NCBI GenBank assembly: GCA_963841435.1
Contig: CAWJCS010000001.1
Coordinates: 256,001-320,000, forward strand
Source: an uncultured delta proteobacterium
GTDB lineage: Bacteria; Myxococcota_A; Polyangia; Polyangiales; Polyangiaceae
Direction of reading: 5' to 3'
Length of the DNA: 64,000 nt
This document shows positions 22,160 through 46,134 of the stretch, one piece after another. The position numbers and the translations under genes were made by a program. Below the pieces are notes generated by a model that saw only the letters and a program-made list of their open reading frames with translations, did not search any database and had not been told where the DNA came from. Each line of letters starts with the position of its first letter. Within the stretch, counting starts at the first letter, position 1.

Positions 22160-25100
22160 ATGGCTCAGGGTGCGTCGCCCCAGACTTCGTCGCTGGTCGG
22201 ACGCACGGAGGAGCTCGACACGCTCACGCAGGCCCTCGACGCGGCGGCGTCGGGGCGGGGGAGTCTCGCCCTCGTGTCGGGCGAGGCGGGCATCGGCAAG
22301 AGCGCGCTCGTGGAGGTGCTCCGAGAACGCGCCGAGCGGCGCGGGTTCAGGGTCGCCGCGGGCCGCGCCTGGGAGTTCGCCGACGCGCCGCCCTGGTTCG
22401 CCCTGCGCGCGGCACTGCGCTCGCTCGACATCGATCCCAAGACGTTCGAGGCGTCGGGAGAAGAAGGTGCGTTCCTGTTGTGGGAGCGCGTGCTCGAGGG
22501 GCTGGCCGCTCAGAGCCGCGAAGCGCCGGCGCTCTTCGTCGTCGAGGACGTGCACGCCGCCGATCTGCAGACTCTCGATCTGTTGGTCTTCCTCATCCAG
22601 CCACTCAAGGCGCTTCGCTGCCTGATCGTCGCCACCACGCGCCCCGAAGATCCGCGGCTCAACGATCGCACGAGCGACCGGCTGACCCGGCTTTTCCGCG
22701 ACGGTCTCGACGTGCGTCTTCAGCCGCTTTCCCCGAAGCTCGTCGAGGAGCTCGCCGCGCGCGTCGCCAAAACGCGCTTGCCCGAGGCGGCGATGACACG
22801 GCTCGAGGAGCTCACGGGGGGCAATCCACTCTTCGTCGTGGAGTACGCCCGCGCCCTCGCCGCCTCGACCGGTCACCTTGGCGCGCTCGGCAGCCTGCCC
22901 CCGACCGTGCGCCAGGTGGTGCTCGAGCGGGCGCGGTTTCTGCCCGAAGGAACGCAGCGGACGCTCAGGGCCTGCTCCGTTTTCGGGCGAGACTTCTCGG
23001 CGGCGCTGGTGGCCAAGGTCGTGGACGGCTTGCCTGCGAGCGCGATCGACGAGCTGATTCCGGCGTTGCGCGCCGGCATGGTGCTGGAGCTCGAGCCGGG
23101 GCAGTTTCGCTTCAGCCACGTCCTGGTCCGCGATGCGTTCTACGAAGCGATGGCACCGAGCGAGCGGGCCTCGCTTCACGCACGCGCGGCCACCGCCTTC
23201 GACACGACGGACGGCGGCGACGGGCTGATCACGGCGGCGCAGCATGCCCTCCGGGGTCTGCCGATTTCCGATCGCGAGCTCGCGCTGGGCCTCGTCGAGC
23301 GCGCCATCCGGGCGCTCGAAGCGCAGCGGGCCCACGACCGTGCGTTCGCGCTCTGCCGGCTCCGCGATCGAGCGCGCAGCGAAGGCACGCTGCCGGCCGC
23401 CACCCCCGAAGAGCTCCTGCATTCGGTGGCCCTCGCCCGCGCGGCGGGCCGTTTCGTCGAAGCCAGCGCCCTCTCGGAGCAGCTGCTCGCGCGGGCGCGC
23501 GCCGAGCACGATGCGCGCCTGCTCGCAAAGGCGGCGCTGGCGCTCGGGGCGGCGCTAAAACCCGGGATCGTCGACCGAACCCTGGTCGACGCGCTGACCG
23601 AGGCGCGCGCGGCGCTCGGCGAGGCGGAACCGAAGCTCGGCTGTCTGGTCCGCGCCCGGCTCGCGGCCGCCTTGCAGCCGGCGCCGGATCCGAGGGGACC
23701 CATCGCGATGGCCCACGCCGCCATCGCCGACGCGCGCGCGCTCGGCGACCCCGAGCTCTTGCGCGAGGTGCTCTTTTACGCAGGCTCCGCGCTCGTTGAT
23801 TCTTGCTCAGCCCGACGAACGGCTCGCCTGCGCCAGCGAGCTCCTCACGATCGCAGAGCAGACGGGCGACCACGCCCGCGCCCTTGCCGCCACCGTCAGG
23901 CTTGCCATGGAGCACGCCGGCAACGGCGACTTTTCGGCGCTCTCGGCCGACATCGAGCGCGCGCTCGGCCTCTCGGAGGAGCTCGGGCACGCCCCGCGTT
24001 ACCGCTGGCGTCCGCTCCTGCTCTCCTCCATGCAGGCGAGCGCCAGCGGCCGCTTCGACGACGCCGAGCGCGCCATCGTGGAGGTCAAACAGCTCGCCGC
24101 CCACTGCGACGATCCCGCCCTCGTCATGACGCTCCGCTCCCATCAGCTGCTCACCTTGCGCCTACAGCGTCGGGATCACGAGGTGGACGCCATGGTGCCG
24201 GAAATTCAGTCGCTCCTGGCGGGCTCGGCCCTCGCCGAGCCGATGACGGCCATGCTGCGCCTGACGATCAGCGCCCGCACCGAAGATCGAGAGTCCGCGC
24301 GGGCGGCCTTGACGAAGGTGGAGCCGTACATCGACAAATTCCAGGAAGACCCCGACTTCTGCGCGCTGCTCGCGGAAGGCGTGGCGCTAGTCGGCTCCGA
24401 CCCGCTCCGGCGCCGACTGCGCGCGCGCATCGAAGCGGGTTCCCCCGAGCTCAGCATGGGGCACGTCATCATGGTCTACGAGGGGCCCGCGGCGCGTGTG
24501 CTCGCCCTGCTCGATGCCGCGCTCGGAGAAGCGGACCGAGCGCTCGCGCGACTCGAACGGGCCCGAGAGATCTCCGCGGCGCGGGGTCACCGACCCTGGG
24601 TCGCGCAGATGGAATACGACACGGGCCGCGTGCTGATCGAGAGCGGCCGTGCTTCCGCTGCCCGGTCGCACCTCGAGCAAGCCGGAGCGCTCGCCGACGA
24701 GCTCGGCCTCGGGCCGCTCGCCGACATGGCGCGCGCGCGTCTCGGTGCGGCGCCGGCGGCGCGCGTCGACTCCGAAACGCCAGCCGAACGACCGAGCCTC
24801 ACGCTGACGCCAGAAGGAGACACCTGGGAGGTGCGTCACGGCCCGCGCTCGTTTTCGATCCGGGACACGCGCGGCGTGCAGCTCCTCGCGCGGCTCATCG
24901 AGCGACCCGGTGAAGAGATCCACGCCCTGGTGCTGAGCGGTGACGAGGGCCAAAGCCTCTTCGATGGCGACGCGGGTGAAGCGCTCGACCAGACGGCAGT
25001 GAACGCCTACCGCCGGCGGCTCGGCGAGCTCGAGTCGGCCATCGACGAAGCCGAGTCCGCCGCCGACCGCGGCCGGCTCGCGCGGCTCAGCGCCGAGCGC

Positions 25101-25304
25101 GAGGCACTCGTCGGCGAGCTTACGCGAGCCGTGGGCCTCGGTGGTCGTTCGCGCCGGGCGGGGTCGGCGACCGAGCGCGCGCGGGTCAACGTGCGAAAGC
25201 GCCTCAAGCAGGCCATTGCGAGCATCGAAGAAGTCGATGCGGGCCTTGGGCTCTACCTCACCCAGGCCGTGCGCACCGGAGCGTTCTGCTCTTTTCGTCC
25301 GTAG
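22160..25304 (+). CDS. AAA_16 (STAND-like) ATPase/TPR regulator with a 1-bp frameshift near 23800
   Basis: LVGRTEEL, GEAGIGKS, VEDVHAAD, TGGNPLFV, FSHVLVRD. Continues in ORF 23796..25304 ending ERARVNV...VRTGAFCSFRP. Confidence 0.8.
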
Positions 25305-26316: not shown

Positions 26317-26892
26317 CTAGTCGGGCAGTCGTTCGTAAAGCTTTGCCAGATCGAGATGGGCACCCGAGGAGAGATCGAGGGCGCCAGCGGTAACGTCGCT
26401 ATATTCCCAAGCGCCGGATGGCAGGCGACGGTAGCGCTCGATACGAGGCTCGGACTGACTCACGAGCACGTACTCCTCGAGTGAAGGGATGAGTTGATAG
26501 TGTTGCCACTTGCTGCCGCGGTCCTCTTGTTCCGTGGATGGCGACAACACTTCGACGAGCACCGTCGGGTTCGTGATCGTCGCACCGAGCAGATCGGCGG
26601 GGTCGCCTTCGATGGCGCCGCACACGAGCGTTGCATCGGGGTACGTCGCCCTGCCGGTCGCGAGCACGCGGACCTTCTGATCGGACTGAAATGCGACGCA
26701 CTCGGAGCTCCGACCCTGCTCGAGCGCGGCGGAAACGCGCGACGCGAGGGCGTTGTGGCGACGCGAGCCGCCGGCCATCGCGAGGATTTCGCCGTTGTCG
26801 TATTCGTGCTTGAGCCCGCTGTCCTGCTCGTAGGCGAGGTACTCCGCGTAGGTGTACCGGTGCCGCGGGGGAGCAGCCCGAGCCATCGCCAT
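26317..26892 (-). CDS. Uma2 family PD-(D/E)XK endonuclease
   Basis: KHEYDNGEILAMAGGSRRH, YPDATLVC, NPTVLVEVLSPST, IPSLEEYVLVSQ. Confidence 0.93.
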   Translation of the reverse strand: MAMARAAPPRHRYTYAEYLAYEQDSGLKHEYDNGEILAMAGGSRRHNALASRVSAALEQGRSSECVAFQSDQKVRVLATGRATYPDATLVCGAIEGDPADLLGATITNPTVLVEVLSPSTEQEDRGSKWQHYQLIPSLEEYVLVSQSEPRIERYRRLPSGAWEYSDVTAGALDLSSGAHLDLAKLYERLPD

Positions 26893-27326: not shown

Positions 27327-27448
27327 CGAGCTGAGGGTAACCTACCTTCCGGGCCACCCGGAGTGGGGGAACCGCCTGTGCTCGAGCTCGGCTTGCGCCC
27401 GCGTGTTCCCCTGCTGGGCTCGAGCGAGCCATGCTGGCCGTCGCTGCC

Positions 27449-28153
27449 ATGCCGAAGAAGCTCGACATCTATGCGGGAAAGAGCCCACGTGAGCTGCCAC
27501 TCTACTCCGTTCACGAGGCGGCGCGCATCGTGCGCGTGCGACCAACCACGGTTCGTGCTTGGGCGCTCGGCCGCACCTACCCGACAAGCCAGGGCGACAG
27601 GGCCTGGCCCCCGCTCATCCACGCCGCAGATCCCAAGGGTCGCAGGCTGTCTTTCGCGAACCTGGTCGAGCTTCACGTGCTGCGCTCGCTGCGCGACAAG
27701 CGCGTGCGCGTCGAGAGCATCCGGAGCGCCTCGCGGTTCATCAAGAATGCGCTCAGGGCCGAGCACCCGCTCGCGGACGTGGACGCCCACACCGACTGCG
27801 TCGATGTCTACGTGGAGTACCTGGGCCGGCTGATCAATGCGTCCACGTCCAACCTTGCGCTCCGCCCGGTCGTCGAAAAGTATCTCGAACGCATCGATCG
27901 CGACGAGCAGGGGCTTGCCAGTCGGCTGTTTCCCATCACCCGTGATGACGCCACCAACACCCGTGCCGTCGTCATCGACCCGGCGCGGCGCTTCGGCAGG
28001 CCCATCCTCGCGAACGCGAACATCGAGACATCCGTCATTGCGGATCGCTTCTTCGCAGGCGAGGTGCCAGAGTCCCTCGCTGCTGACTTCGACATCTCCG
28101 AGAGCGACGTGCACGAAGCCGTGAGGTTCGAGCATCAACTGCGCGCTGCCTGA
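27449..28153 (+). CDS. DUF433 antitoxin (VapB45-like)
   Basis: PLYSVHEAARIV HTH, LSFANLVELHVL, VVIDPARRFGRP, LAADF..V.EAVRFE. Confidence 0.88.
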   Translation: MPKKLDIYAGKSPRELPLYSVHEAARIVRVRPTTVRAWALGRTYPTSQGDRAWPPLIHAADPKGRRLSFANLVELHVLRSLRDKRVRVESIRSASRFIKNALRAEHPLADVDAHTDCVDVYVEYLGRLINASTSNLALRPVVEKYLERIDRDEQGLASRLFPITRDDATNTRAVVIDPARRFGRPILANANIETSVIADRFFAGEVPESLAADFDISESDVHEAVRFEHQLRAA

Positions 28154-28156
28154 GCC

Positions 28157-28578
28157 GTGACTTCCGGGCGCGTCTACTGGGTCGACCGCTCGCTCGGAAG
28201 CATCTACATCCCCAACACGCTGCGAGCCGCGGGCGTCGGCATCAAAGTCTAGGGCGACATCCATGCCGACCCGTCGGTGCCGGACCACGAGTGGATGCCG
28301 GAGGTCGCAGCCCGCGGCTGGGTGATTCTCACAAGGACAAGGCCATTCGGCGTCAACCGGTCGAAATCGCAGCGATCCGACGCGCGAGCGCATACTGCGT
28401 GTGCCTGTCCGCCAAGAACATGCGCGGTGATGAGCAGGCCGCATGCCTCATCGAAAAATGGCCGACTATCGACTCCTTGGTGGCGAGTAAGCGAGCGCCG
28501 CTGATTGTCATGGTGACCCGCACCGTCGTGCAATGGCTCGACGGTGCGCACTGGCGCTCGGCCAAACCCAGGCGATAG
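28157..28578 (+). pseudogene. PIN-like toxin (VapC45-like) with in-frame TAG at 28250 and frameshift near 28333
   Basis: YWVDRSLG...LRAAG..KV*...DHEWM..VAARGWVILT / KDKAIRR... Confidence 0.8.
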
Positions 28579-28841
28579 CGGCATGGATTGGCAGGCTGTG
28601 GATAGTTTGAGCTGTCGCAACATTCCCGTCACAAACGAACCCCTTCCGCCCGCGTGTGTTTTGGAGTTACTTTCGCCGATCCATGGGATCGAAGAAGCGG
28701 GCGGCGGCGACGCGAGACGTGTCGAATACGGAGCTGGAGGGAGTGGTATGCGCCGCAGCGCGACGCGCGCTGGACACGCCGTCGGTCGGGGTTGGTCAAC
28801 GACGCGAGACAGGGCGTCCCGGGGTCGGCGTCTAGGAGGAC

Positions 28842-30059
28842 GTGGGGGCTGCGATGGCAAATCCTCTCGTTGCGAGCTCCAGCGGTGCGGCAGTGCCCGC
28901 GACGGTCGAGACCCCCGCTTCCGAAGCGCTCAAGCGATCGGAGCCGGGGCGAGTGCAGAGCGTGTTCTGCCGCGACGTCGATCTCGCGCGACGTCGCTTG
29001 CGAGTGGCCGCAGAGGAAGAGAAGTCGATCCCCACGCTCGTCGCTCTTGAATGGGAGCGCGTGCCGTCCCTGGCGCGAGAGCTCGATGAGATCCGCGATG
29101 CTCTGGCAGAGGCCGCAGGCTCCATCTGGCCAAATTGGTACATCACCGCTGAGGAGCGCTTCGAGCGAACGCGACCGCGGGAACTGGACCTTTCGCCCCT
29201 GATCGCCGAAATCGCGCAGTCGGCCGGGAAAGTGTCGACGAGCTGGCTACGCGAGGCCTGGAAGCGTTGCCGCAACGGCAACCCGCCCGTCGTTGCGCAC
29301 ATGGCTGCTGGTGAGCAGGTCCGGCAGCTGTCGCGCGCGCTCGACCCAGGCCGACTGGTGTTCGTCCTTTCCGTCCTCTCAGACGATGCGCCACCAGCTC
29401 GTCTTCGAGGGCTCGCTGGGGCGGCGGAATGGCTGGCTTACGAGGCACAAGCGCGGACGCTACTGTTGTTGCCCGGGTCCTGGCAGGGGAACCCCGAGCT
29501 CGATCGCGTCGCGTACGGCGCCGTCACCCTCGACGAGGACGAGGTCGCGACCCCGAGGGTTCCCGCAATAGAGCCGCTTGAACCGCCTGGGAACGTCAAT
29601 CCGTCGGAGGAGGCCTCGCGTGAGAGCGAGTTGACCAAGCGCGTCGGCGAGGCCCCGGTTCACGTGTTGGTTGGCCCCGTCGTCGGCAAGCCGCACCCTG
29701 GGAGTGAGGTCGAGCAACTGCTCAACAAACGACTGTCGTCAGATCACGATCTCGGCGCGCTGTTCGAGTACAACCAGCGACTGGCGGCGTTCGGCGGCAA
29801 CCAGTACATCGTCAACTTGGTTTGGAAGCAGGGCGGTCTCGTCGTCGAGCTCGACGGACCCGAGCATCACGGTCACCTGACGTACGTCAAGGATCGCGAG
29901 CGCGACTACCGCCTCTACATGAGCGGCTACACGACGCTCCGGGTGACGAACGACGAGGTGTGCATCGACGTTGAGCGCGTCGTCACCAAGATCAAGAACA
30001 TGGTGGGGCGCTTGAAAGCACACCAAAAAGGGAAGGTGAGCGATGACCTACGAACCTAG
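28842..30059 (+). CDS. Protein with C-terminal DUF559/Vsr-like endonuclease domain
   Basis: SEVE..L...EYNQ...YIVNLVW...VVELDGPEHH...DRERD..L...GYTTLRVTNDEV; RBS aggagga before GTG. Confidence 0.85.
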   Translation: MGAAMANPLVASSSGAAVPATVETPASEALKRSEPGRVQSVFCRDVDLARRRLRVAAEEEKSIPTLVALEWERVPSLARELDEIRDALAEAAGSIWPNWYITAEERFERTRPRELDLSPLIAEIAQSAGKVSTSWLREAWKRCRNGNPPVVAHMAAGEQVRQLSRALDPGRLVFVLSVLSDDAPPARLRGLAGAAEWLAYEAQARTLLLLPGSWQGNPELDRVAYGAVTLDEDEVATPRVPAIEPLEPPGNVNPSEEASRESELTKRVGEAPVHVLVGPVVGKPHPGSEVEQLLNKRLSSDHDLGALFEYNQRLAAFGGNQYIVNLVWKQGGLVVELDGPEHHGHLTYVKDRERDYRLYMSGYTTLRVTNDEVCIDVERVVTKIKNMVGRLKAHQKGKVSDDLRT

Positions 30060-30738
30060 TCCCAAGCAGGCACTGCTTATTTGGAAGATGATCACTGGCG
30101 CGAGCCACGAGGAACGCGAGCCGCTGCAGAGCAAGACGCGACCCGAGCTGAGCGCCAAGGAACGGAAGGCTCTCGCGGACAACGGGTTCGTAACTCTGGA
30201 GCCGCCGGGCAAGAAGCAGGGCCTAAGGCTCGTTCTCACGGACAAGGCCTGGGCCTGGGCGGAAGCGGCCGGGGACGTCGACCTTTTCAAGTCCCGGTCG
30301 AGCGTGGGAGCCGAAGCACTGCAGGGATTGCTCCGTCGGCTGCTGCCGTTCCTGAGGCGTGAGGAAATTCCCCTGTCGAATCTGTTCGCGGAGGATTCCG
30401 CGCCCGCCGAGGGCAGAGAGGGCGCAACGCCCGCCGTCGAGTCAACTTCCAACGAAAACGGCTCGTCCGATTCGAAGTCATTGCCTGCCCGAATCGAAGC
30501 AGAGTGCCTGTCGCTATCGGGCGGTGCCAGACAGGAGCGCGTGCGCCTCAGCGCGCTCCGCCATCGCCTGAAGTCCGTGCAGCGCGGCGTGCTCGATGCG
30601 GCGCTGCTGAATCTTCAAGATCAGCGTCAACTCGTCCTTTACCGCGACGACAACACCGCCGCACTCACCGAAGACGATCGCGACGCAGCGCTGTTGGTCG
30701 GCGGTGAACCCCGGCACCTGGTCTATCTGGAGGCATGA
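30043..30738 (+). CDS. Hypothetical protein, probably two winged-helix-like domains
   Basis: Overlaps the upstream gene. N-terminal LADNGFV...LTDKAWAW; C-terminal VRLSALRHRL..V.R..LDAALL.L...LVLY. Confidence 0.7.
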   Translation: MTYEPSPKQALLIWKMITGASHEEREPLQSKTRPELSAKERKALADNGFVTLEPPGKKQGLRLVLTDKAWAWAEAAGDVDLFKSRSSVGAEALQGLLRRLLPFLRREEIPLSNLFAEDSAPAEGREGATPAVESTSNENGSSDSKSLPARIEAECLSLSGGARQERVRLSALRHRLKSVQRGVLDAALLNLQDQRQLVLYRDDNTAALTEDDRDAALLVGGEPRHLVYLEA

Positions 30739-30739
30739 C

Positions 30740-33700
30740 ATGGACCTCGCTCTCACGGCCTTGCGCAAAGTGAACTTCGATTGGGCTGCTCGGATCGACC
30801 AGATCTGGGTTGATCAGACCTACGAAACGACCCGGCTTCAGACGGACATCCGACAAGAGCTCCAGGAGCGGCTCGAAGATCTTGCCGACAGCGGGGAATC
30901 GGCGTCTCCGTTGGGGATCCCGCTCCTTGGGCCGGCAGGTTCGGGAAAGACGCACCTGCTCGGTGTCCTTCGGCGTCAAGCGCTGGCGCAACGGATGTAC
31001 TTCATCCTCGCGGACATGACGGACGTCGGGGACTTCTGGGAAACCGTCTCGCTCGGCTACCTCCGTTCGTTGCAGCAGCCGCTGTCGGCCGATCGGAGGC
31101 AGGTGGATCACTGGCTCGACAGGATGATCGCCCTGTTCGGTCAGAGCATGAAGAAGCCCGAAGATATCCCGAAGCAGCGGCCGCCGGGGCTGATCAACCG
31201 CACCGAGGAGCTGATGGCGCAGGTCCGCATCAAGCACCGCGCCGAGGTGCAGGAGCACTCGGATGTCCTGCGTGCGTTGATCCTGTTCGCTTGCGACCAC
31301 GTCGATGTCAATGATCTTGGCTACAAGTGGCTTCAGGGGCTGGTCATCGACGAAGACGAAGCCGGATTGTTTGGTTTTCGGCAACGTAGCCAGACGCCGT
31401 CGAGAATCGTGCGCGGCCTCGCTTGGCTTCTTTCGCTGACGGGGTCGAGCGTCCTCGCCCTCGATCAGCTGGACGCTATCGTAGCCGAACACGAACTGGC
31501 TCGTGGCGAGGCGGACGCCGAGTTCCCGTCGGAGCAGCAGCGCCGATCGCTCAGCATCATCCAGGGCATAGCGGGAGGGCTCCGTGAGCTTCGAGACGTA
31601 ACTCGGCGCACCCTGTCCGTCGTTTCCTCGCTCGAGGCGACCTGGGAAATTCTCGATCGTCAGGCAACGGTCAGCATGGCTGACCGCTTCGACAGCAAGC
31701 TCCTCTTGAAGCCGGGGTCGGGTCCCGAGGCTTCGCGCGAGCTCGTTGTCGGGCGCCTGCTCCCCGCGTACGAACAGCAGGGATTCAATCCGCCGTACCC
31801 GTCGTTTCCGTACGGTGATCAGTTCTTCGAGCTCTATCGGCGCAACACCCCCCGCGAGCTTCTCAAGGCCTGCGAAGCGCACAGGAAAGCCTGTCGCAAG
31901 GCAGAACGCGTTACGGAAGCAACCAGTCTCGAGCCTGGCACGCCCCCGCCCGTCCGATCGCCTGGTTGGAAGGAATCCATCGCCGCGCGTGTTGCCGAGC
32001 TGGTGCGCCGTGCCGATCTGGACACGGTGCTCGGCGATGAATCGGAAGCCTTGCAAGACCGAATTGTCGAGGCAGCGTGCGATGCGCTAGTCCTCGAAAA
32101 TCCAGTGCCTGAATCCGTTCTCGCCCAGGTCGACAAGGACTTCATGGGAACGGGGAGCTATGACCCGCTTCACGCGCGGGTGCGTCTGATCCTCACCCAA
32201 CAGTCCGAGCGGGAGCGGCACCACTCCTTTCGATTCTTGGAAAAATCTCACCATCGAGCGTTTCAGGCGCGCTTGAAGGCTGCGTTGACTGCCTCTGGCG
32301 TCGACCAGGATCTAAGCTTTCGTGGCCTCACGGTGCTTCGGGTGAGTGCCATTCCCTCCGGTGCGGCGACGCAGAAGCTCGTCGCTGATCTCCACGCGCG
32401 CGGCGGACGTATCGTGACGCCTTCCCGAGAGGATCTTTCGACGCTCCTTGCCATCAAGGAGCTCCTCGAAGCATCGAGTGACGCCCCGCGCTTCGAGGAT
32501 TGGCTTGCCGAGGAGCGCCCCGTGTCGAAGATGGGGTGCTTCAAGGACGCAGCGCAGGCGCTGTTCGGGGCGTTTGGTGCCGAACGGAGCGGTACTGAGG
32601 TTCCCAAGTCGCTGAACGGCACACATCCCACGCCGGCCGCGAGCGCTCGTCCGGTCGTCGCCCCCACGCAACCGACTCCGAACCCCGCGCACGCGGCGCC
32701 GGCCGTTCTCCCCATAGGGCGCCGACTGGCAGGCGGAGAACCTCAGGAGGAGGTCGGAATCACCCTCGATCGGCTCCCGTACCACACGTGCGTGTTCGCG
32801 GGCTCCGGCAGCGGCAAGACCGTGTTCCTCAAACGAGTCATCGAAGAGGCAGCACTGCTTGGCATCCCCAGCATCGTGCTCGACGGTGCCAACGATCTCT
32901 CGCGGCTCGGCGCAGCTTGGCCTGCGAAGCCGGATGCTTTCTCCGCCGATGACGAGCGGAAATCTCGACAGTACCTCGAGTGTTCCGAAGTCGTGGTGTG
33001 GACGCCGGGCGCGGCGAACGGCAACCCCATGCGCCTCAATCCGTTGCCTGATTTCGACACGCACTCCGGTTGCGCTGAGGAGCGAGAGGCCGAGCTTCAC
33101 GCCGCGATCGAAATCGCTACGTCGAGCATCGCAGACATGATCATCAAGGCGACCGGTAGCGCCGCGACGAAGCAGACCGCCATCCTCAAGTCCACGCTCC
33201 GCCACTTTGCCAAGCGCGGCGGCACAATCCGGGATCTCGCCGTGCTGCTCCGCGAGCCGCCGGAAGAAGTCATCGAGCCCTATGAAAAAGGTGACAAGCT
33301 GGCCCGCGAGCTCGCCGAGCTACTCCATGCAGAGCTCGAGAGCGACCCCCTCGTTGGTGGCGCGGGGGCTCCGCTCGATCCGAGCCTCCTTTTTCGGGCC
33401 AGCGTGCCCGGCAGGACTCGAATCTCGGTCCTGAGTCTGGTCGGCCTGGCGGGCTACGAACAGAAACGCCGGTTCGTCGACCAGCTGGCGAGCACGCTGT
33501 TCTCTTGGGCCAAGAAGACCCCGGCCCCGCCCGGCGGCATCCTGGGCTTGTTCGTGATGGACGAGGCCAAAGACTTCGTGCCCTCGGGAAAAAGCGTACC
33601 GGGCAAGGAGAACGTCAAGCGCCTTGCCGCTCAGGCGCGGAAGTACGGCCTTGGCTTGCTCTTCGCGACTCAGGAACCGAAGAGCATCGACCACGGCATC

Positions 33701-33952
33701 GTCTCGAACTGCTCGACACTGCTCGGCGGAAAAATGAACTCCCCAGCGGCAATCGCTGCGCTCCAGCAACTTCTCGCCGACAAGGGAACCCACGCCACCG
33801 ACGTTGGTTCACTCAAGCGGGGCACCTTCTATTTTGGCTCGGACTCGTACAAGCCCCGAAAGATCTCCACCTCGCTCTGCCTGAGCTATCACCCCTCCAC
33901 GCCGCCGAGCGAAGCAGAGGTTCTCGAGAGCGCGCGACGCTCCGCGCGCTGA
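30740..33952 (+). CDS. Double P-loop ATPase: N-terminal AAA-like domain plus C-terminal HerA/FtsK (DUF87-like) domain
   Basis: GPAGSGKT and LALDQLD; then HTCVFAGSGSGKT, FVMDEAKDF, QARKYGLGLLFATQEP. RBS ggagg, start 1 bp after the upstream stop. Confidence 0.88.
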   Translation: MDLALTALRKVNFDWAARIDQIWVDQTYETTRLQTDIRQELQERLEDLADSGESASPLGIPLLGPAGSGKTHLLGVLRRQALAQRMYFILADMTDVGDFWETVSLGYLRSLQQPLSADRRQVDHWLDRMIALFGQSMKKPEDIPKQRPPGLINRTEELMAQVRIKHRAEVQEHSDVLRALILFACDHVDVNDLGYKWLQGLVIDEDEAGLFGFRQRSQTPSRIVRGLAWLLSLTGSSVLALDQLDAIVAEHELARGEADAEFPSEQQRRSLSIIQGIAGGLRELRDVTRRTLSVVSSLEATWEILDRQATVSMADRFDSKLLLKPGSGPEASRELVVGRLLPAYEQQGFNPPYPSFPYGDQFFELYRRNTPRELLKACEAHRKACRKAERVTEATSLEPGTPPPVRSPGWKESIAARVAELVRRADLDTVLGDESEALQDRIVEAACDALVLENPVPESVLAQVDKDFMGTGSYDPLHARVRLILTQQSERERHHSFRFLEKSHHRAFQARLKAALTASGVDQDLSFRGLTVLRVSAIPSGAATQKLVADLHARGGRIVTPSREDLSTLLAIKELLEASSDAPRFEDWLAEERPVSKMGCFKDAAQALFGAFGAERSGTEVPKSLNGTHPTPAASARPVVAPTQPTPNPAHAAPAVLPIGRRLAGGEPQEEVGITLDRLPYHTCVFAGSGSGKTVFLKRVIEEAALLGIPSIVLDGANDLSRLGAAWPAKPDAFSADDERKSRQYLECSEVVVWTPGAANGNPMRLNPLPDFDTHSGCAEEREAELHAAIEIATSSIADMIIKATGSAATKQTAILKSTLRHFAKRGGTIRDLAVLLREPPEEVIEPYEKGDKLARELAELLHAELESDPLVGGAGAPLDPSLLFRASVPGRTRISVLSLVGLAGYEQKRRFVDQLASTLFSWAKKTPAPPGGILGLFVMDEAKDFVPSGKSVPGKENVKRLAAQARKYGLGLLFATQEPKSIDHGIVSNCSTLLGGKMNSPAAIAALQQLLADKGTHATDVGSLKRGTFYFGSDSYKPRKISTSLCLSYHPSTPPSEAEVLESARRSAR

Positions 33953-34044
33953 CGGCGCCCACCCGTGCGCGAGCGCGGCACCGACAGCCGATCCATCTCC
34001 GGCAGTTGGGGGCGCAGAGCTCGATGGAGGAGATCTTGCTGGCG

Positions 34045-34545
34045 TCACCGCCGCGACCGCGCTCGCGGCGTGCTCCGTGCGCGCTTCTTCCGGTGTCGCT
34101 GGGCTCGCTCGAGCGCTTCTAGATCCGCCAGGTCCTGAGCGCGCGCAAAGTGCCGCTTTTCCGCCACGAGATCGGACAGGCTCAGAAAGTTCGCTGGGGT
34201 CTTGCCGAAGCTCGCCTGCACGCGGCGCTTCCAGGCCTGGGCGAAGGTGGCCGTAAACAGGCGCGGCAGAAGATCGACACGGACCGGAGCGACGCCGAGC
34301 TGAACGATGACCTCGGGGTCGAGAAGGTTCTCCACGTTCACGTAGCTCGGCGCCGTGCCGCCGAAGAACGCCGTGAGGGCTTTGACGACGCGCTTGGCGT
34401 TCCGCGGACCGGGAGCCACGTAGAGATCGAGATCTTTGGTGGCTCGCGGCCGCGCGTGAAACGCAACGGCGTGGGCCCCTCCGATCAGGTACTCAGCGCC
34501 GGCCGAGTTCAACTCTGCGAGCAACTCTTCGAAGTCGGGGTACAT
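34045..34545 (-). CDS. Nucleotidyltransferase (DUF6036-like)
   Basis: YLIGGAHAVAFHARPRATKDLD...PVRVDLL...K...R.QDLADL. Confidence 0.85.
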   Translation of the reverse strand: MYPDFEELLAELNSAGAEYLIGGAHAVAFHARPRATKDLDLYVAPGPRNAKRVVKALTAFFGGTAPSYVNVENLLDPEVIVQLGVAPVRVDLLPRLFTATFAQAWKRRVQASFGKTPANFLSLSDLVAEKRHFARAQDLADLEALERAQRHRKKRARSTPRARSRR

Positions 34546-34726
34546 GAGACCTGCCCTGGGCCCTGAGCGCGCTCTGTGTGCAGTCGAACACCGCCCGGAC
34601 GCGGGCTTCCGGGGTCATGCGGCGCCAGAACTCCGCGTCCACCTGGGCGGCCTCCGCAAGCGGAACGAGCGAAACCTGCCAGCGGCGGCCATGCCCGTCC
34701 ACGTGCCGTTGCGTCCTCGTCTTCAC
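34493..34726 (-). CDS. Small partner protein overlapping the nucleotidyltransferase start
   Basis: ...DAEFWRRMTPEARVRAV...PRLRRVARRV; resembles the 8491 protein. Confidence 0.6.
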   Translation of the reverse strand: MKTRTQRHVDGHGRRWQVSLVPLAEAAQVDAEFWRRMTPEARVRAVFDCTQSALRAQGRSHVPRLRRVARRVELGRR

Positions 34727-34806
34727 CTTCAACACGCAGAGCCTACCATGGGGTTCCTCCAACCACCCGGCCTGGCGAGCCGTGCGCGGCTGCCCCGCGC
34801 TGCCGC

Positions 34807-41362: not shown

Positions 41363-44300
41363 ATGTCCCTCCCCCGCGGCCTCTACGAGCTCCTCATCAC
41401 GAGAGACCTCGAAGCCCGCCTGCGCGACCACGCCGAACGCACCGACGTCGAACACACCGCCGCCGAACGTACCCACGCCGAACGCACCGACACCGAACGC
41501 ACCGACACCGAACGCACCCACGCCGAACGCACCGAGCTCCGCCACGCTGACGCCGCCGATCGGATTGCCGTGCACCTCGCGCGCGTCATCGAGCGCGCCG
41601 TCGAATCATTCGGCGACAGGGAGCGCGTCGAAAAGGGCATCGAGCTCGCGCGAAAGCTCATCGAAGACATCGACGCCGTCGTCACGGGCGACCTCGGCCG
41701 CGAGTCGCCGGTCACGCCGGGCGCCGTCCTCCGCGCTGTGGTCGCGCGCCTGCCGGGCGGCGGCACCGAAAGCATCCCCGAGCCGCTGATCCCCCTGCTC
41801 GACACGGCCCTGCTCACCAACGCCCCAGGCGAGCCGCGCGTCGGCCACCAGCTGGAGGCCGAGATCCACTCCGCCGATCGCATCGACCTCGTCATGGCGT
41901 TCATCCGCAGAAGCGGCGTCGCCCCGCTCCTCGCCGCCCTGCGCGCCCACTGCGAAGCAGGCCGCCCGCTCCGCGTCCTCACGACCACGTACACCGGTTC
42001 GACGGAACCGGCCGCGCTCGACCAGCTCCGCGCCTTCGGTGCCGACCTCCGCGTCTCCTACGACACCACCACCACGCGCCTGCACGCCAAAGCCTGGCTC
42101 TTCCACCGCCGCTCGGGCTTCTCCACCGCCTACATCGGCTCATCGAACCTCACCCACTCAGCGCAGGTGACCGGCCTCGAATGGAACGTCCGCGCCTCCG
42201 CCGCGCGCAACGCCCCCGTCATCGACAAAGTCGCCGCCGTCTTCGAAAGCTACTGGCAGAGCGGCGACTTCAAACCCTACGACGCTGCCGAATTCCTCGA
42301 ACGCACGAAGAGCACCGCGTCGGGCCCCGAAGTCTTCCTGAGCCCCATCGAGCTCCGCCCCGAGCCCTTCCAGGAGCGCCTGCTCGAACAGATCGCGCTC
42401 GCCCGCGAGCTCGGCCACCACAAAAACCTCCTCGTCTCCGCCACCGGCACCGGCAAAACCGTCATGGCCGCCGTTGACTACGCGCGCCTGCGCACAGCGC
42501 TCCCCCGCGCGCGCCTCCTCTTCGTCGCCCACCGCGAAGAAATCCTCACGCAGAGCCGCGCCACCTTCCGCCACGGCCTGCGCGACCACAGCTTCGGCGA
42601 GCTGTGGGTAGGCGGCCGCAAACCCGAACACTTCGAGCACGTCTTCGCCTCCATCCAGAGCCTCAACGCCGCAGGCTTCACCGACCTCGACCCCGAGCAC
42701 TTCGACGTCGTCATCGTCGACGAATTCCACCACGCCGCCGCGCCCTCCTACCGCGCCCTGCTCGACCACGTGCGCCCCCGCGAGCTGCTCGGCCTGACCG
42801 CCACCCCCGAACGCAGCGACGGCCTCCCGCTGCTCGAATGGTTCGAGCACCGCATCGCCGCCGAGCTCCGCCTCTGGGACGCGATCGACCAACACCGCCT
42901 CTCCCCGTTCACCTACTACGGCATCCACGACGGCCTGGATCTCCGCGACGTCCCCTGGCGCCGCGGCCGCGGCTACGACGTGGAGGGCCTCACCAACGTC
43001 CTTACCGCAAACGACGCCTGGGCAAGACTCGTCCTCAAAGAGCTCCTCCAACGTGTGGACGACCCGCACCGCATGCGCGCCCTCGGCTTCTGCGTCAGCG
43101 TCGAGCACGCGCGCTTCATGGCCCGCGTCTTTGCCGAGGCGTCCCTCGCCGCGACCGCCATCTGGGCCGACAGCCCCGACGACGAACGCAAAGCCGCCCT
43201 CAAAAACCTCGCCGCCGGCACCCTCAACGTCGTCTTCTCCGTCAACCTCTTCAACGAAGGCGTCAACCTCCCCGTCGTCGACACCGTCCTCTTCCTCCGC
43301 CCGACGGACAGCCCCACGCTCTTCCTCCAGCAGCTCGGCCGCGGCCTGCGCCGGAGCCCCGGCAAAACCAACTGCCTCGTCCTCGACTTCGTCGGCCAGC
43401 ACCGAAAAGAATTCCGCTTCGACCGCCGCTTCGGCGCCCTGCTCGGCGGCACCCGCACCGACGTCGCCGACCAAGTCAAACAAGGCTTCCCCTTCCTCCC
43501 CGCGGGCTGCCACATGGAGCTCGACCGCGTCGCCACCGACATCGTCCTCCGCAGCCTCCGCGAATCCGTCCCCACCCGCTGGCAAGCCAAAGTCGACGAG
43601 CTCCGCGCCCTCCACGCCACCCACCCCGACCTCCGCCTCGCCGACTACCTGGAACAGACAGGCCTCGACCTCGCCGACCTCTACGACGGCGGCCGCTCCT
43701 TTACCGACCTCCGCTCCGCCGCCGGCGTCACCCTGCCGCCCGCCGGCCCCAGCGAAGAAACCCTGCGCCGCGCCTGCGGCCGCCTCCTCCACGTCAACGA
43801 CCTCCCGCGCATCGACGCCTGGGCGCGCCTCCTATCGAGCGAAGCGCCGCCCGACGCCGCGAGTCTCGACCCGAAAGAGCAGCGACTGCTCCGCATGCTG
43901 GTCGCATCAGTCGCCGACAAGGCGGTGACGAAATCCACGCCGCTCGGCGAGGGCGTGAGCCTGCTCTGGGCGCATCCCGCAGTGCGCCTGGAGCTGCTCG
44001 AGCTCCTGGACGTGCTCCGCTCGCGCGTCTCGCACGTGCATCCACCGCTCGATTCCCATCCGCTCGTGCCGCTGCGTGTGCACGCGCGCTACTCGCGCCT
44101 GGAGATCCTGGCCGCCTTCGGCATCGGAGAGGGGGCCAAGGTGGCGCCGTGGCAAACGGGCGTCTACTTCGCCGACCAGGCCCGCGCGGACCTCCTGGCC
44201 TTCACACTCGACAAAACGAGCGGCAAGTTCTCACCAACCACGCGCTACCGCGACTACGCGATCAGTCGGGAGCTCATCCACTGGGAGAGCCAGTCGGTGA

Positions 44301-44524
44301 CGCGCGCCGACGGGGAGACCGGCCAGCGCTACCAGCGCCACGTGGAGCTCGGCACGAGCGTGCAGCTCTTCGCGCGGCAGCGCCAAGACGACCGCGCGTT
44401 CTGGTTCTTGGGGCCGGCGACCTACGTGAGCCACGAATCGGAGATGCCGATGGCCGTCACTTGGAGGCTGGAGCATGCTTTGCCGGGGGACTTGTTCGTC
44501 GGGTTTGCGGCGGCGGTGGCGTAG
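41363..44524 (+). CDS. PLD nuclease-SF2 helicase-DUF3427 protein (SauUSI-like type IV restriction architecture)
   Basis: LHAKAW...GSSNLT..EWN; ATGTGKT, DEFHH, GLTATP, QQLGRGLR; C-terminal YRDYAIS..LIHWESQS. Confidence 0.9.
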   Translation: MSLPRGLYELLITRDLEARLRDHAERTDVEHTAAERTHAERTDTERTDTERTHAERTELRHADAADRIAVHLARVIERAVESFGDRERVEKGIELARKLIEDIDAVVTGDLGRESPVTPGAVLRAVVARLPGGGTESIPEPLIPLLDTALLTNAPGEPRVGHQLEAEIHSADRIDLVMAFIRRSGVAPLLAALRAHCEAGRPLRVLTTTYTGSTEPAALDQLRAFGADLRVSYDTTTTRLHAKAWLFHRRSGFSTAYIGSSNLTHSAQVTGLEWNVRASAARNAPVIDKVAAVFESYWQSGDFKPYDAAEFLERTKSTASGPEVFLSPIELRPEPFQERLLEQIALARELGHHKNLLVSATGTGKTVMAAVDYARLRTALPRARLLFVAHREEILTQSRATFRHGLRDHSFGELWVGGRKPEHFEHVFASIQSLNAAGFTDLDPEHFDVVIVDEFHHAAAPSYRALLDHVRPRELLGLTATPERSDGLPLLEWFEHRIAAELRLWDAIDQHRLSPFTYYGIHDGLDLRDVPWRRGRGYDVEGLTNVLTANDAWARLVLKELLQRVDDPHRMRALGFCVSVEHARFMARVFAEASLAATAIWADSPDDERKAALKNLAAGTLNVVFSVNLFNEGVNLPVVDTVLFLRPTDSPTLFLQQLGRGLRRSPGKTNCLVLDFVGQHRKEFRFDRRFGALLGGTRTDVADQVKQGFPFLPAGCHMELDRVATDIVLRSLRESVPTRWQAKVDELRALHATHPDLRLADYLEQTGLDLADLYDGGRSFTDLRSAAGVTLPPAGPSEETLRRACGRLLHVNDLPRIDAWARLLSSEAPPDAASLDPKEQRLLRMLVASVADKAVTKSTPLGEGVSLLWAHPAVRLELLELLDVLRSRVSHVHPPLDSHPLVPLRVHARYSRLEILAAFGIGEGAKVAPWQTGVYFADQARADLLAFTLDKTSGKFSPTTRYRDYAISRELIHWESQSVTRADGETGQRYQRHVELGTSVQLFARQRQDDRAFWFLGPATYVSHESEMPMAVTWRLEHALPGDLFVGFAAAVA
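41429..41533 (+). repeat. In-frame 15-bp tandem repeat, 7 units (xxERT)
   Basis: Variants of cacgccgaacgcacc encoding HAERT DVEHT AAERT HAERT DTERT DTERT HAERT. Confidence 0.9.
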
Positions 44525-44656: not shown

Positions 44657-45976
44657 TCACTCGAGATCGTCCGCCCGCCACCAGAGCTTCCGCTTGGCCT
44701 CCTCGAAATGCTCCTCGGGCGTGTGCCATTCCGAGAAGTGATCCATGGCGTTGCCGCCACCGAAAAGCCGGCGTGCGCTCTCAAGCCGCTGCTCGACGGC
44801 AGCTCGCCCATTCTCGTCCAGCTTCTCCCACCCCTCGGCAAGCCCGGTGAAGAACTTCTCGATATTGGTCGCCGTCACCCAGCGCTCAATCACTTTTAGC
44901 AGCTCATGACGGCTCTCCTCGTCAGCCTTCGCGCGGATCTCCTCGAGCTCTTTGCGGTGCCGCTCGCGCTCAGCCGCAACGTATCGCTCGTGCTCCTCTT
45001 TCCGCTTCCGCTCGGATTCCTGTGCCTGCGAGGCGAGCTGCGGGGCCGTCGCCTCGAGTTCGTCACCGATGCCTTCAAGCAGCCGCTTCAGTTCGCCGGG
45101 TTTGGCTTCACGCCAGTAGTGTTCCCACGGCGCACCCAAGTACGGCGAATACGCCTGCACTCCGAGTCTGCCGCTCGGGAGGGAATGCTTTGAGAAGCCC
45201 CAGCTCCTCTCCGCGCGAAGCCGCTCCATGGCCTTGCTCTGCGGCACGCGGACATAGTCGCCGTCGCTGTACATGACCTCGACCTCTTCCGCGATCTCGA
45301 AAACGACCAGCCCGACGGCGACGCCACCGATATAGACGAGCGTGGGACGCGCCGACGACCAGACGCGAGATGAGTCGTAGTGGCGATGGCGCGACGGTTT
45401 GCCGCCCGGATGCTCCTCATGCTCGAGCTCGGGTCGCCTATAGCCTTGGGCCCCCGCCTGGCGCACCCAATGGCCGCGATCCTCGAGCGCCAGATACAGG
45501 CGGTTCGGTAGGTTCAGCGCATCGTCGAGAGCGTCCTTGGAAACGAAGATGTCCGGCAGAGCGCCGCGCTTGGGGACGAGATACCCGTGCCGCTCGTACT
45601 TCCTGGGCTTCGAATCGAGGAAGTCTTCACGGACGCCCGCGAGCACTGGGTGCGTCTTGGGGCGCTCTCCCCTCCGCGTCTTCCGCTCGCCGAGGCCCAC
45701 GAACACCGGCGTCGGGATTTCACGCACCTCGTAGCCACCGTCGGTGCCGCGCTTCCACGCCGTCACGTCCCCGGGGTCTGGGGCGGGCAAGGGATCGCGC
45801 TTGGGGTCTTTGCCCGCGCCAAGTTGCTGCCAATAGCCGCGCCCGGGACGCGGGATCTTCAGCTGCTCGCAGATGCGGGCGAGATAGTTCGACGAGACGG
45901 CGTACCGCTCGGCGACGGTGGTCATGGGTTCCTTCCAGACCTCGTCATAGAGGGTTTCCCGAGTGATCGTGGTCAC
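44657..45976 (-). CDS. Conserved hypothetical protein with N-terminal HTH, of a type often found in mobile elements
   Basis: ITRETLYDEVWKEPM..VA..Y.VS...LARIC..LKIPRPGRGYW; C-terminal coiled coil. Confidence 0.75.
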   Translation of the reverse strand: MTTITRETLYDEVWKEPMTTVAERYAVSSNYLARICEQLKIPRPGRGYWQQLGAGKDPKRDPLPAPDPGDVTAWKRGTDGGYEVREIPTPVFVGLGERKTRRGERPKTHPVLAGVREDFLDSKPRKYERHGYLVPKRGALPDIFVSKDALDDALNLPNRLYLALEDRGHWVRQAGAQGYRRPELEHEEHPGGKPSRHRHYDSSRVWSSARPTLVYIGGVAVGLVVFEIAEEVEVMYSDGDYVRVPQSKAMERLRAERSWGFSKHSLPSGRLGVQAYSPYLGAPWEHYWREAKPGELKRLLEGIGDELEATAPQLASQAQESERKRKEEHERYVAAERERHRKELEEIRAKADEESRHELLKVIERWVTATNIEKFFTGLAEGWEKLDENGRAAVEQRLESARRLFGGGNAMDHFSEWHTPEEHFEEAKRKLWWRADDLE

Positions 45977-46134
45977 GTTCGGGAAGATACTATCGTCGCC
46001 CCCGCCCACCCGCACCGACCCGCTGCTCAGGTCGGGCGGACGCTTGCGTGTGAGGGTGAACGCCCAATTCCGGCCCTAGAACCCGCCTAGTCCATCGAGG
46101 GAACACGCGGTAGGTTACGGTTGTTCAAGTCGGC

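Follow-up and report, generated by a model that had tools for sequence, protein, structure and literature searches.

Within a 64,000-nucleotide (nt) stretch of DNA from an uncultured delta proteobacterium of the Polyangiaceae (assembly GCA_963841435.1, contig CAWJCS010000001.1, positions 256,001-320,000; the whole stretch is called the window below), we analysed a cassette of three co-oriented genes, A, B and C, at window positions 28842-33952. All three are listed as coding open reading frames (ORFs) on the plus strand, in the order A-B-C, and together they encode a predicted nuclease, a protein modelled with two winged-helix domains and a double ATPase, a combination that suggests a system directed against foreign DNA. 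The distribution of guanine and cytosine (GC) across codon positions is 0.71/0.46/0.77 in A, 0.70/0.47/0.75 in B and 0.68/0.47/0.76 in C, a coding-like pattern for all three frames in a genome with a GC content of 67-70%. A and B overlap by 17 nt; the TGA of B ends at 30738 and the ATG of C begins at 30740, leaving a gap of 1 nt, with the sequence GGAGG placed 6 nt 5' of that ATG. Both the coordinates and the junction sequence agree with the overlap and gap given in a preliminary description of this locus, and the three genes are translationally coupled. The form of C with 1070 amino acids (aa) is identical (100%) to the recorded protein P0004; the start of A is ambiguous, in that the alignment of homologues begins only at about residue 25-36 of this 405-aa ORF and an ATG is present at 28854. 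No promoter-like sites were found in the region 28000-34800, where terminator-like sites were not in excess (7, against 4.9 +/- 2.4 in shuffled sequences), and the window contains no tRNA genes. Local GC is 0.63-0.65 at the cassette and 0.67-0.72 in its flanks. We conclude that the three genes form a genuine unit, both intact and conserved.

The largest product, C, has 353 homologues at E <= 1e-3 among 7996 candidates scored, and 116 of the 120 listed of these 353 are 1040-1140 aa long. Its translation contains two Walker A/B sets, GPAGSGKTH with VLALDQLD and, further on, the HerA-type AGSGSGKTV, VMDEAKDF and ARKYG...FATQ. The preliminary description had recognised both sets, along with the HerA/FtsK signatures DEA, ARKYG and ATQ; all are present, and both sets are invariant in an alignment (A1) of 16 homologues that share 40-75% identity with the window's C. 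The invariant residues of this alignment are G64, G67, G69, K70, T71, H72, D242, Q243 and D245 in the first set, and the Walker A motif, DEA, ARKYG and Q978 in the second. In the numbering of the 1082-aa ORF, Pfam places AAA_16 at residues 50-156 (4.7e-8) and DUF87/HerA at 682-795 (5.8e-7). Within residues 1-400, the generic AAA_16 and AAA_22 families match all 16 aligned members and BrxC_BrxD matches six of the 16 (best E 4.8e-6), and the Atlas clusters nearest to the N-terminal half are AAA_22, AAA_16, KAP and BrxC_BrxD. The N-terminal module may plausibly belong to the ORC/Cdc6 clade.

The C-terminal part of the protein resembles HerA. Profile searches of the Protein Data Bank (PDB) matched C to HerA chains with E-values from 4e-13 to 3.5e-8, among them 8xau (4e-13), 8wiv (6.5e-11) and Sulfolobus HerA, 4d2i (1.4e-10). 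Named systems were sought for the cassette in PADLOC (2023) and NCBIfam, and in PADLOC for 18 neighbouring ORFs as well; here the best PADLOC match of C was mad8 (E 3.1e-20, profile positions 20-289 of 314), which covers the HerA part only, and three homologues of C matched the same profile at 1e-25 to 5e-29. The second P-loop also gave weak matches of the FtsK, TrwB, VirB4 and TraD types.

Between the two ATPase parts lies a conserved middle domain, for which a profile search of the PDB gave no meaningful sequence match at E <= 10, an Atlas feature search gave no lead (best 0.81, to an unnamed entry) and an hhalign comparison with the nuclease family of A gave nothing. A profile built from 44 sequences of this domain retrieved 597 cluster representatives among 1.84 billion, 253 of them at E <= 1e-30. 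The best 150 of these 597 comprise 83 proteins of at least 1000 aa, 44 of 560-999 aa and 23 that are shorter, and among the matches listed the long proteins match from about residue 390-480 onwards; proteins below 1000 aa may be fragments. From these lengths and start positions, the middle domain is essentially private to the C architecture.

For A, the DUF559 nuclease assignment of the preliminary description is upheld by Pfam (residues 320-387, E 4.5e-12) and by the motif VVELDGPEHH in the translation. An AlphaFold2 model based on 42 homologues (predicted local distance difference test, pLDDT, 88; predicted template modelling score, pTM, 0.83) divides the protein into two domains, the C-terminal one being the nuclease. 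Across alignment A3 (42 sequences), residues E336, D338, H342, D351, R352, R354, D355 and R367 are invariant and D325 nearly so; since these include acidic and histidine residues of catalytic type, the predicted nuclease is probably active. The N-terminal domain, which had gone unnoticed in the preliminary description, is modelled with an AAA+/STAND-type fold and has no conserved Walker A or Walker B residue in A3, from which we infer an inactive AAA+-like domain. When families A and C were compared by hhalign they came out as unrelated (probability 0.09), so that A has no detectable paralogy to the N-terminal part of C. A complex prediction for C(1-660) with A(20-250) returned a score of 0.00, a value that was obtained without controls and is mute on binding either way. 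The DUF559 part of A also gave a weak PADLOC match to DpdF (E 4.8e-4).

B has no Pfam or NCBIfam family, its PDB profile search produced nothing meaningful (best E 0.21), and a Foldseek search with its model returned no match at E <= 0.001; SspB (6lb9) stands among the weak Foldseek rows, at rank 8 and with a probability of 0.11, and PADLOC gives a weak match to JetA (E 0.0021). According to its model (pLDDT 88), B is a tandem winged-helix protein, with a first winged-helix domain at residues 1-80, a helix at 88-115, a disordered linker at about 120-145 and a second winged-helix domain at 147-231. The winged helix-turn-helix (wHTH) character that had been proposed for it is therefore matched by two such domains in the model. 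The features of the cassette and its surroundings are collected in Table 1.

Table 1 Features of the A-B-C cassette and its surroundings (positions in the window; domain assignments are predictions)
Feature	Position	Strand	Details
Gene A	28842..30059	+	405-aa ORF, GTG start; pseudo-AAA+ domain followed by Vsr/DUF559 endonuclease
A, putative pseudo-AAA+ domain, residues ~21-245	28902..29576	+	alpha/beta, AAA+/STAND P-loop NTPase fold; Walker A and B absent
A, predicted Vsr/DUF559-type endonuclease domain, residues ~270-400	29649..30041	+	includes ELDG motif E336-G339 (29847-29858)
Gene B	30043..30738	+	231 aa, ATG start; putative adaptor with two winged-helix domains
Gene C	30740..33952	+	1070-aa double ATPase; ATG at 30740 inside a 1082-aa GTG ORF, 30704..33952
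C, ORC/BrxC/STAND-like AAA+ module, residues 1-404	30740..31951	+	Walker A GxxGxGKTH 64-72 (30929-30955); Walker B LDQLD ~241-245
C, middle domain, residues 405-655	31952..32704	+	conserved 250-residue domain (alignment A4); family-specific
C, HerA/FtsK-type ATPase, residues 660-1070	32717..33949	+	Pfam DUF87 and HerA_C in 16/16 members
C, second-set Walker A, residues 688-695	32801-32824	+	
C, second-set Walker B DEA, residues 941-943	33560-33568	+	
C, second-set ARKYG, residues 966-970	33635-33649	+	
C, second-set sensor Q978	33671-33673	+	
Uma2-family putative endonuclease	26317-26892	-	PADLOC PDC-S03, E 3.5e-20
HTH_66 + DUF433 protein	27431-28153	+	just upstream of the cassette
PLD-nuclease + ResIII helicase + DUF3427 protein	41363-44524	+	PADLOC mREase_IV (type IV methyl-directed restriction enzyme), E 1.2e-256
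ORF of 452 aa beside PDC-M32A	44657-46015	-	no family
Candidate PDC-M32A component, 380 aa	46135-47277	+	PADLOC E 7e-84

The order of the three genes is conserved well beyond the window, as a check proposed in the preliminary description now shows. A pattern scan of one genome per species yielded 184 relatives of C, of which 67 loci (numbered with the prefix L) were kept. B lies directly upstream of C in 56 of the 56 loci that hold the N-terminus of C, ending between -4 and 147 nt before it (median 13.5). Where 1900 nt or more of upstream sequence is available (51 loci), A precedes B in 44, the exceptions being L017, L023, L034, L043, L052, L057 and L066. Outside both counts stand the Sorangium loci L044, L046, L048, L051 and L053, in which tblastn aligns only the HerA part of C. 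All five carry a B homologue: directly before a 1116-aa C-like ORF in L044, and about 2.1 kb upstream of the HerA match in L046, L048, L051 and L053, where A was not found. A and B diverge faster than C: identities for A, B and C are 51%, 51% and 68% in L001 and 32%, 32% and 41% in L018.

Judged by the titles of their records, the carriers comprise members of the Polyangiaceae, other Myxococcota, Cyanobacteria of the Leptolyngbya and Synechococcus type, Planctomycetota, Chloroflexota (Caldilineae) and Desulfobacterota. A plasmid collection, in which three of 72,556 records hold a match, adds Actinomycetota and Alphaproteobacteria through Tsukamurella and Methylobacterium records that keep the A-B-C order. 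Homologues thus span at least seven phyla, and culturable carriers include Synechococcus, Sphaerothrix, Paludisphaera, Tautonia and Methylobacterium. At close range the cassette is rare, patchy and accessory even within its own genus. A full-length C was found in four of 36 other genomes of the genus, at 69-70% identity in three and 39% in one, with A and B adjoining it in all four; a further genome (G029) has a distant C-like protein of 27% identity and neither A nor B. Among 301 genomes drawn evenly from the phylum, the B profile matched only the window's own, which holds a single copy of the cassette. The patchiness and the lower GC are together characteristic of a rare cassette that moves horizontally.

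Some copies are damaged. C is probably decayed in L012, where it falls into four frame-shifted pieces (L012:8001-11181), and in L029, where it is split into two ORFs (L029:8001-11212, the second from 9755). Within the genus, A has a decayed look in one genome (G026:C21:76224-76930), with two in-frame TGA codons; in another (G011) it is cut off by the end of its contig.

L043 and L044 present a variant of the operon. At L043:2055-15266, from a metagenome-assembled genome of the Polyangiaceae, and L044:985-13143, from Sorangium, the order is an SMC/Rad50-like ATPase (1242-1283 aa), B, C (1116-1164 aa) and a WD40 protein (1246-1290 aa), and no DUF559 gene is present in the variant operon; L043 has in addition a Metallophos phosphoesterase in front. 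The SMC-like ATPases match Pfam AAA_23 and SMC_N and, in PADLOC, LmuB (4e-14 and 1e-19).

None of the named systems in PADLOC or NCBIfam matches the cassette, and the difficulty of assigning it to one, noted in the preliminary description, thus persists. We found no paper that names or tests it. The nearest is PMC10853773 (Nucleic Acids Res 2024), whose member-listing supplement may hold these very proteins; the accessible part of this source describes, by comparative genomics, 'HerA/FtsK capture' systems coupled to a specific AAA+ ATPase of the Orc/CDC6 family. Their five usual elements are the Orc/CDC6 ATPase, an inserted inactive restriction endonuclease (REase), an active REase of one of two families, a HerA/FtsK ATPase and a wHTH, the inactive REase lying, according to the same text, invariably between the AAA+ core and a C-terminal wHTH. 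In the logic proposed there, the ORC-like and HTH parts localise the apparatus, and HerA intercepts invader DNA and pumps it to the nuclease. The class is referred to again in the accessible part of PMC12839542. Since PMC10853773 already predicts a class with the same division into loader, translocase and nuclease, the word 'undescribed', which had been applied to the cassette, is too strong: the cassette is compact and unnamed, but not undescribed in the strict sense.

The cassette displays three of the five features of this class, namely the HerA/FtsK domain, the predicted active REase-fold nuclease and the wHTH protein, the last being B with its two modelled winged-helix domains and its faster divergence relative to C. 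As far as the available portion of PMC10853773 goes, cassette and class have in common an AAA+ ATPase, a HerA/FtsK ATPase, an active REase-fold nuclease and a wHTH, mobile neighbourhoods and the proposed logic; that portion differs in containing no occurrence of DUF559 or Vsr (0) and no pseudo-AAA+ domain on a nuclease. The middle domain of C could correspond to the 'inactive REase + wHTH' of the published class. Most likely the cassette fits the predicted capture class, where it would represent a particular fusion of domains alongside a pseudo-AAA+-Vsr nuclease.

Other systems share single parts with it. SIR2-HerA and DUF4297-HerA likewise place a HerA-type ATPase beside a separately encoded effector, and the core of C aligns to their structures 8xau and 8wiv; the alignment, however, is confined to a stretch of about 85-130 residues that surrounds Walker B and the arginine finger, and the PADLOC HerA models match only residues of about 920-1050. 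In classical HerA a barrel domain lies N-terminal to the ATPase core, and the HerA part of C is preceded by a 650-residue stretch made up of the AAA+ module and the middle domain. The effector differs as well, being a predicted Vsr-type nuclease with a pseudo-AAA+ domain, and there is a third gene, B. Membership of these systems (Gao_Her) was rejected: HerA_antiphage_2 reached 36.7 bits (cut-off 850) and HerA_antiphage 26.1 (cut-off 800), and neither SIR2 nor DUF4297 was detected in A, B or the 18 neighbouring ORFs.

The MADS system of Pseudomonas aeruginosa supplies the best PADLOC match to the HerA part of C, mad8; in the accessible part of PMC13662399, MAD7 and MAD8 form an ATPase-nuclease module required for MADS defence. 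MADS differs in that its operon comprises eight genes, which include a methyltransferase, a kinase and the OLD-like pair MAD3/MAD4, and mad8 corresponds to only about a third of C. As mad1-7 were unmatched by A, B or the 18 neighbouring ORFs, and mad8 was matched by part of C only, the cassette was not assigned to MADS. A HerA/FtsK pump, an REase-fold nuclease and a multi-wHTH protein recur in DndFGH and SspFGH, where, according to the portion of PMC10853773 available, DndH combines an REase with a HerA/FtsK domain, and DndG and SspB carry wHTH arrays. These systems differ in architecture and size, the window contains no phosphorothioation genes, and A, B and C gave no Dnd, Ssp or Pbe match in PADLOC apart from the weak DpdF match of A. 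Wadjet and Lamassu were also considered and set aside: B matches JetA only weakly and no SMC-like gene lies beside the window's cassette, although the variant of L043 and L044 has an SMC ATPase of LmuB type.

The immediate surroundings in the window bear out in part the earlier statement that the cassette sits among toxin-antitoxin and restriction genes. The Uma2/PDC-S03 gene, the HTH_66 + DUF433 gene, the type IV enzyme and the PDC-M32A candidate (Table 1) agree with it; the last two, however, are separated from the cassette by glycoside-hydrolase-type genes. The HTH_66 + DUF433 gene was dropped as a candidate member of the cassette, DUF433 being absent among the flanking ORFs of other loci described below. 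Further upstream (window 22160-25304, plus strand), an AAA_16/BrxD-like ORF (22160-24913) overlaps a TPR ORF (23796-25304) in another frame; the TPR ORF has the better coding GC pattern. The two may belong to a single large ATPase-TPR gene that carries a frameshift or whose frame was mis-called.

Other loci place the cassette in other settings. In Tsukamurella tyrosinosolvens (L068, NZ_LR134464.1, 4520-13558), A-B-C lies between rplN and rpsQ, with a VapBC pair, a BTAD-domain fragment, a DEAD/DEAH helicase and two hypothetical genes as neighbours; the record is labelled a 224-kb plasmid yet carries ribosomal protein operons. In three cyanobacterial loci a leucine-rich-repeat (LRR) gene follows C directly on the same strand (L017:11257-13596, L035:11260-12156 and L037:11226-12290), and in L017, which has no A, it encodes a ROCO-type LRR-Roc-COR protein.

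Taking these lines together, we put at roughly 60% the probability that A-B-C is a horizontally spread, three-gene system against foreign DNA (phage or plasmid) of the predicted ORC/Cdc6-like-coupled 'HerA/FtsK capture' kind. C would assemble by means of its HerA/FtsK domain as a ring-shaped oligomer and pump double-stranded DNA, and its ORC/BrxC-like AAA+ module, with the two winged-helix domains of B, would find the DNA substrate and load the machine. Since the cassette has no methyltransferase with which to mark self, the substrate would probably be some structure or process by which invaders stand out, for example free ends or intermediates of replication, packaging or transfer. The Walker-less AAA+-like domain of A would tether and gate the nuclease, perhaps by docking as a pseudo-subunit on the AAA+ module of C, and A would then cut the DNA fed to it. 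B and C would form the constant core, and the effector would be exchangeable. In favour of this reading, one parts list unites a pump, a loader-type ATPase, domains of the DNA-binding type and a nuclease; in each of the four C proteins that were tested, the HerA part lies close to mad8 (3e-20 to 5e-29), and it is also close to anti-phage HerAs; the unit is conserved and yet accessory in its distribution; L043 and L044 have another set of genes in place of A; the published prediction for the class follows the same logic; and the window's own surroundings contain Uma2/PDC-S03, a type IV restriction enzyme and PDC-M32A.

Several observations weigh against it. No copy of the cassette was found by tblastn in 50,697 phage records, none of the 24 matches from a pattern scan of IMG/VR is a relative, and plasmid records with a match are few (three of 72,556). 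B and C occur without an A-like gene within the locus in six loci (L017, L023, L034, L052, L057 and L066), which shows that A is not an obligatory partner. The cassette also lacks an obvious way to discriminate self from non-self, there being no methyltransferase among A, B, C and the 18 neighbouring ORFs. Signs of a defence island are weak at other loci. We scanned 134 flanking ORFs, up to two per side, from 42 other loci; these were taken from 181 predicted flanking ORFs after leaving out 23 shorter than 105 aa, 8 from L066/L067 and 16 from L059-L065, and one of them proved to be a piece of C, leaving 133. By Pfam they are mostly housekeeping or metabolic (their families include MnmG/GidA, LpxD, ribosomal protein S2, PEP carboxykinase, short-chain dehydrogenases and LysR regulators) and about 10 are defence- or mobile-element-like; nine of the 133 have a PADLOC match at E <= 1e-10, two of them generic Ser/Thr kinases, counts that stand without a matched control. 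Close relatives share their housekeeping context (L018/L020 and L035/L037). Because the nearest flanking genes in these 42 loci are mostly of this kind, the defence role, proposed in the preliminary description, is one that we infer.

Chromosomal genes of ordinary function on either side would also suit a module for DNA repair or recombination, an analogue of HerA-NurA (with or without Mre11-Rad50) in which C translocates on or unwinds ends and A nicks or resects them for the host. The HerA domain of C is about equally near to the Sulfolobus repair HerA (4d2i) and to defence HerA (8xau), a HerA-type motor adjoins a nuclease gene in both arrangements, and L043 and L044 tie B-C to a Rad50/SMC-like ATPase, joined in L043 by the Mre11-like Metallophos protein. 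Repair would, however, sit poorly with so patchy an accessory distribution (four of 36 genomes in the genus, and B in one of 301 in the phylum sample), with GC below that of the flanks and with broken copies (C frameshifted in L012 and L029, A with in-frame stops in G026). NCBIfam equivalogs for repair HerA score 16-20 bits against cut-offs of 800-970, no NurA family occurs in A, B or the neighbours, and the SMC-like partner in the variant is closest to LmuB, the Lamassu defence ATPase. On this balance we regard a role in host repair as decidedly improbable, and membership of HerA-NurA was rejected. The same mobility might instead serve the element itself, the genes driving DNA pumping or partition for an integrated element, for instance, or making up a cassette for homing or addiction in which the Vsr-type nuclease would favour the cassette's own spread or retention. 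The weak FtsK, TrwB, VirB4 and TraD-type matches of the second P-loop lean this way, as do insertion sites that vary by lineage, including the one inside a ribosomal-protein cluster beside a VapBC pair, and the accessible part of PMC10853773 ascribes both mobile-element and defence features to such neighbourhoods. Against this, no integrase, recombinase or relaxase family was found in the 134 flanking ORFs at E <= 1e-6 (one terminase, one ParA-like and one HTH_23 protein were present), there is no tRNA within the window, the phage records and the IMG/VR scan hold no copies, the window's genome has one copy only, and close relatives share their chromosomal context. A selfish module thus seems quite unlikely.

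A further possibility is regulated cell suicide, as abortive infection or a stress response, with ATP-dependent sensing by C freeing A against the host chromosome. It would account for the lack of a self-marking modification enzyme in A, B, C and the neighbours scanned, and STAND, KAP and BrxC-type ATPases are among the nearest neighbours of the N-terminal half of C. The carriers of the cassette (myxobacteria, filamentous cyanobacteria, Planctomycetota and Caldilineae) are moreover lineages in which, according to the accessible part of PMC7159879, the NTPase-based conflict systems of multicellular prokaryotes are concentrated. HerA/FtsK pumps, on the other hand, suggest work on a specific DNA substrate, and suicide would be a sub-type of defence rather than an exclusive rival, the sequence separating neither from the other. 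As the specific account of the cassette we consider it very unlikely.

Within the preferred anti-foreign-DNA reading, a more specific and speculative proposal, unlikely as it stands, is that B-C is a constant 'DNA-capture core' for interchangeable effectors, with A, the effector in most lineages, as an ATP-gated pseudo-subunit nuclease and with B as the bridge from a HerA pump to an SMC motor in the L043 and L044 variant. The pseudo-AAA+ domain of A would insert into or cap the ORC-like AAA+ assembly of C, and the Vsr-type nuclease would be licensed only once both ATPases of C had engaged DNA, giving an ATP-gated, methylation-independent discrimination between invader and self. In L043 and L044, B, with two winged-helix domains and a disordered linker in the manner of a kleisin, would link the HerA pump to the LmuB/Rad50-like SMC motor, and the core would also be connected to the WD40 protein and, in L043, to the Mre11-like phosphoesterase. 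We know of no case in which HerA pumps and SMC motors cooperate in immunity.

The pairing of HerA-type pumps with effectors is a theme now emerging in studies of bacterial immunity. To our knowledge, solved structures are limited to the two-gene SIR2 and DUF4297 HerA forms, and we know the ORC/Cdc6-coupled capture class only as a prediction from comparative genomics. The cassette is a compact, intact three-gene representative in which all predicted catalytic residues are conserved, and the effector exchange seen in L043 and L044 offers a handle on modularity. It therefore lets three questions be asked: whether the predicted class defends against foreign DNA, how two different ATPases are coordinated within one polypeptide, and what protects the host chromosome from a Vsr-type nuclease when no methylase is present.

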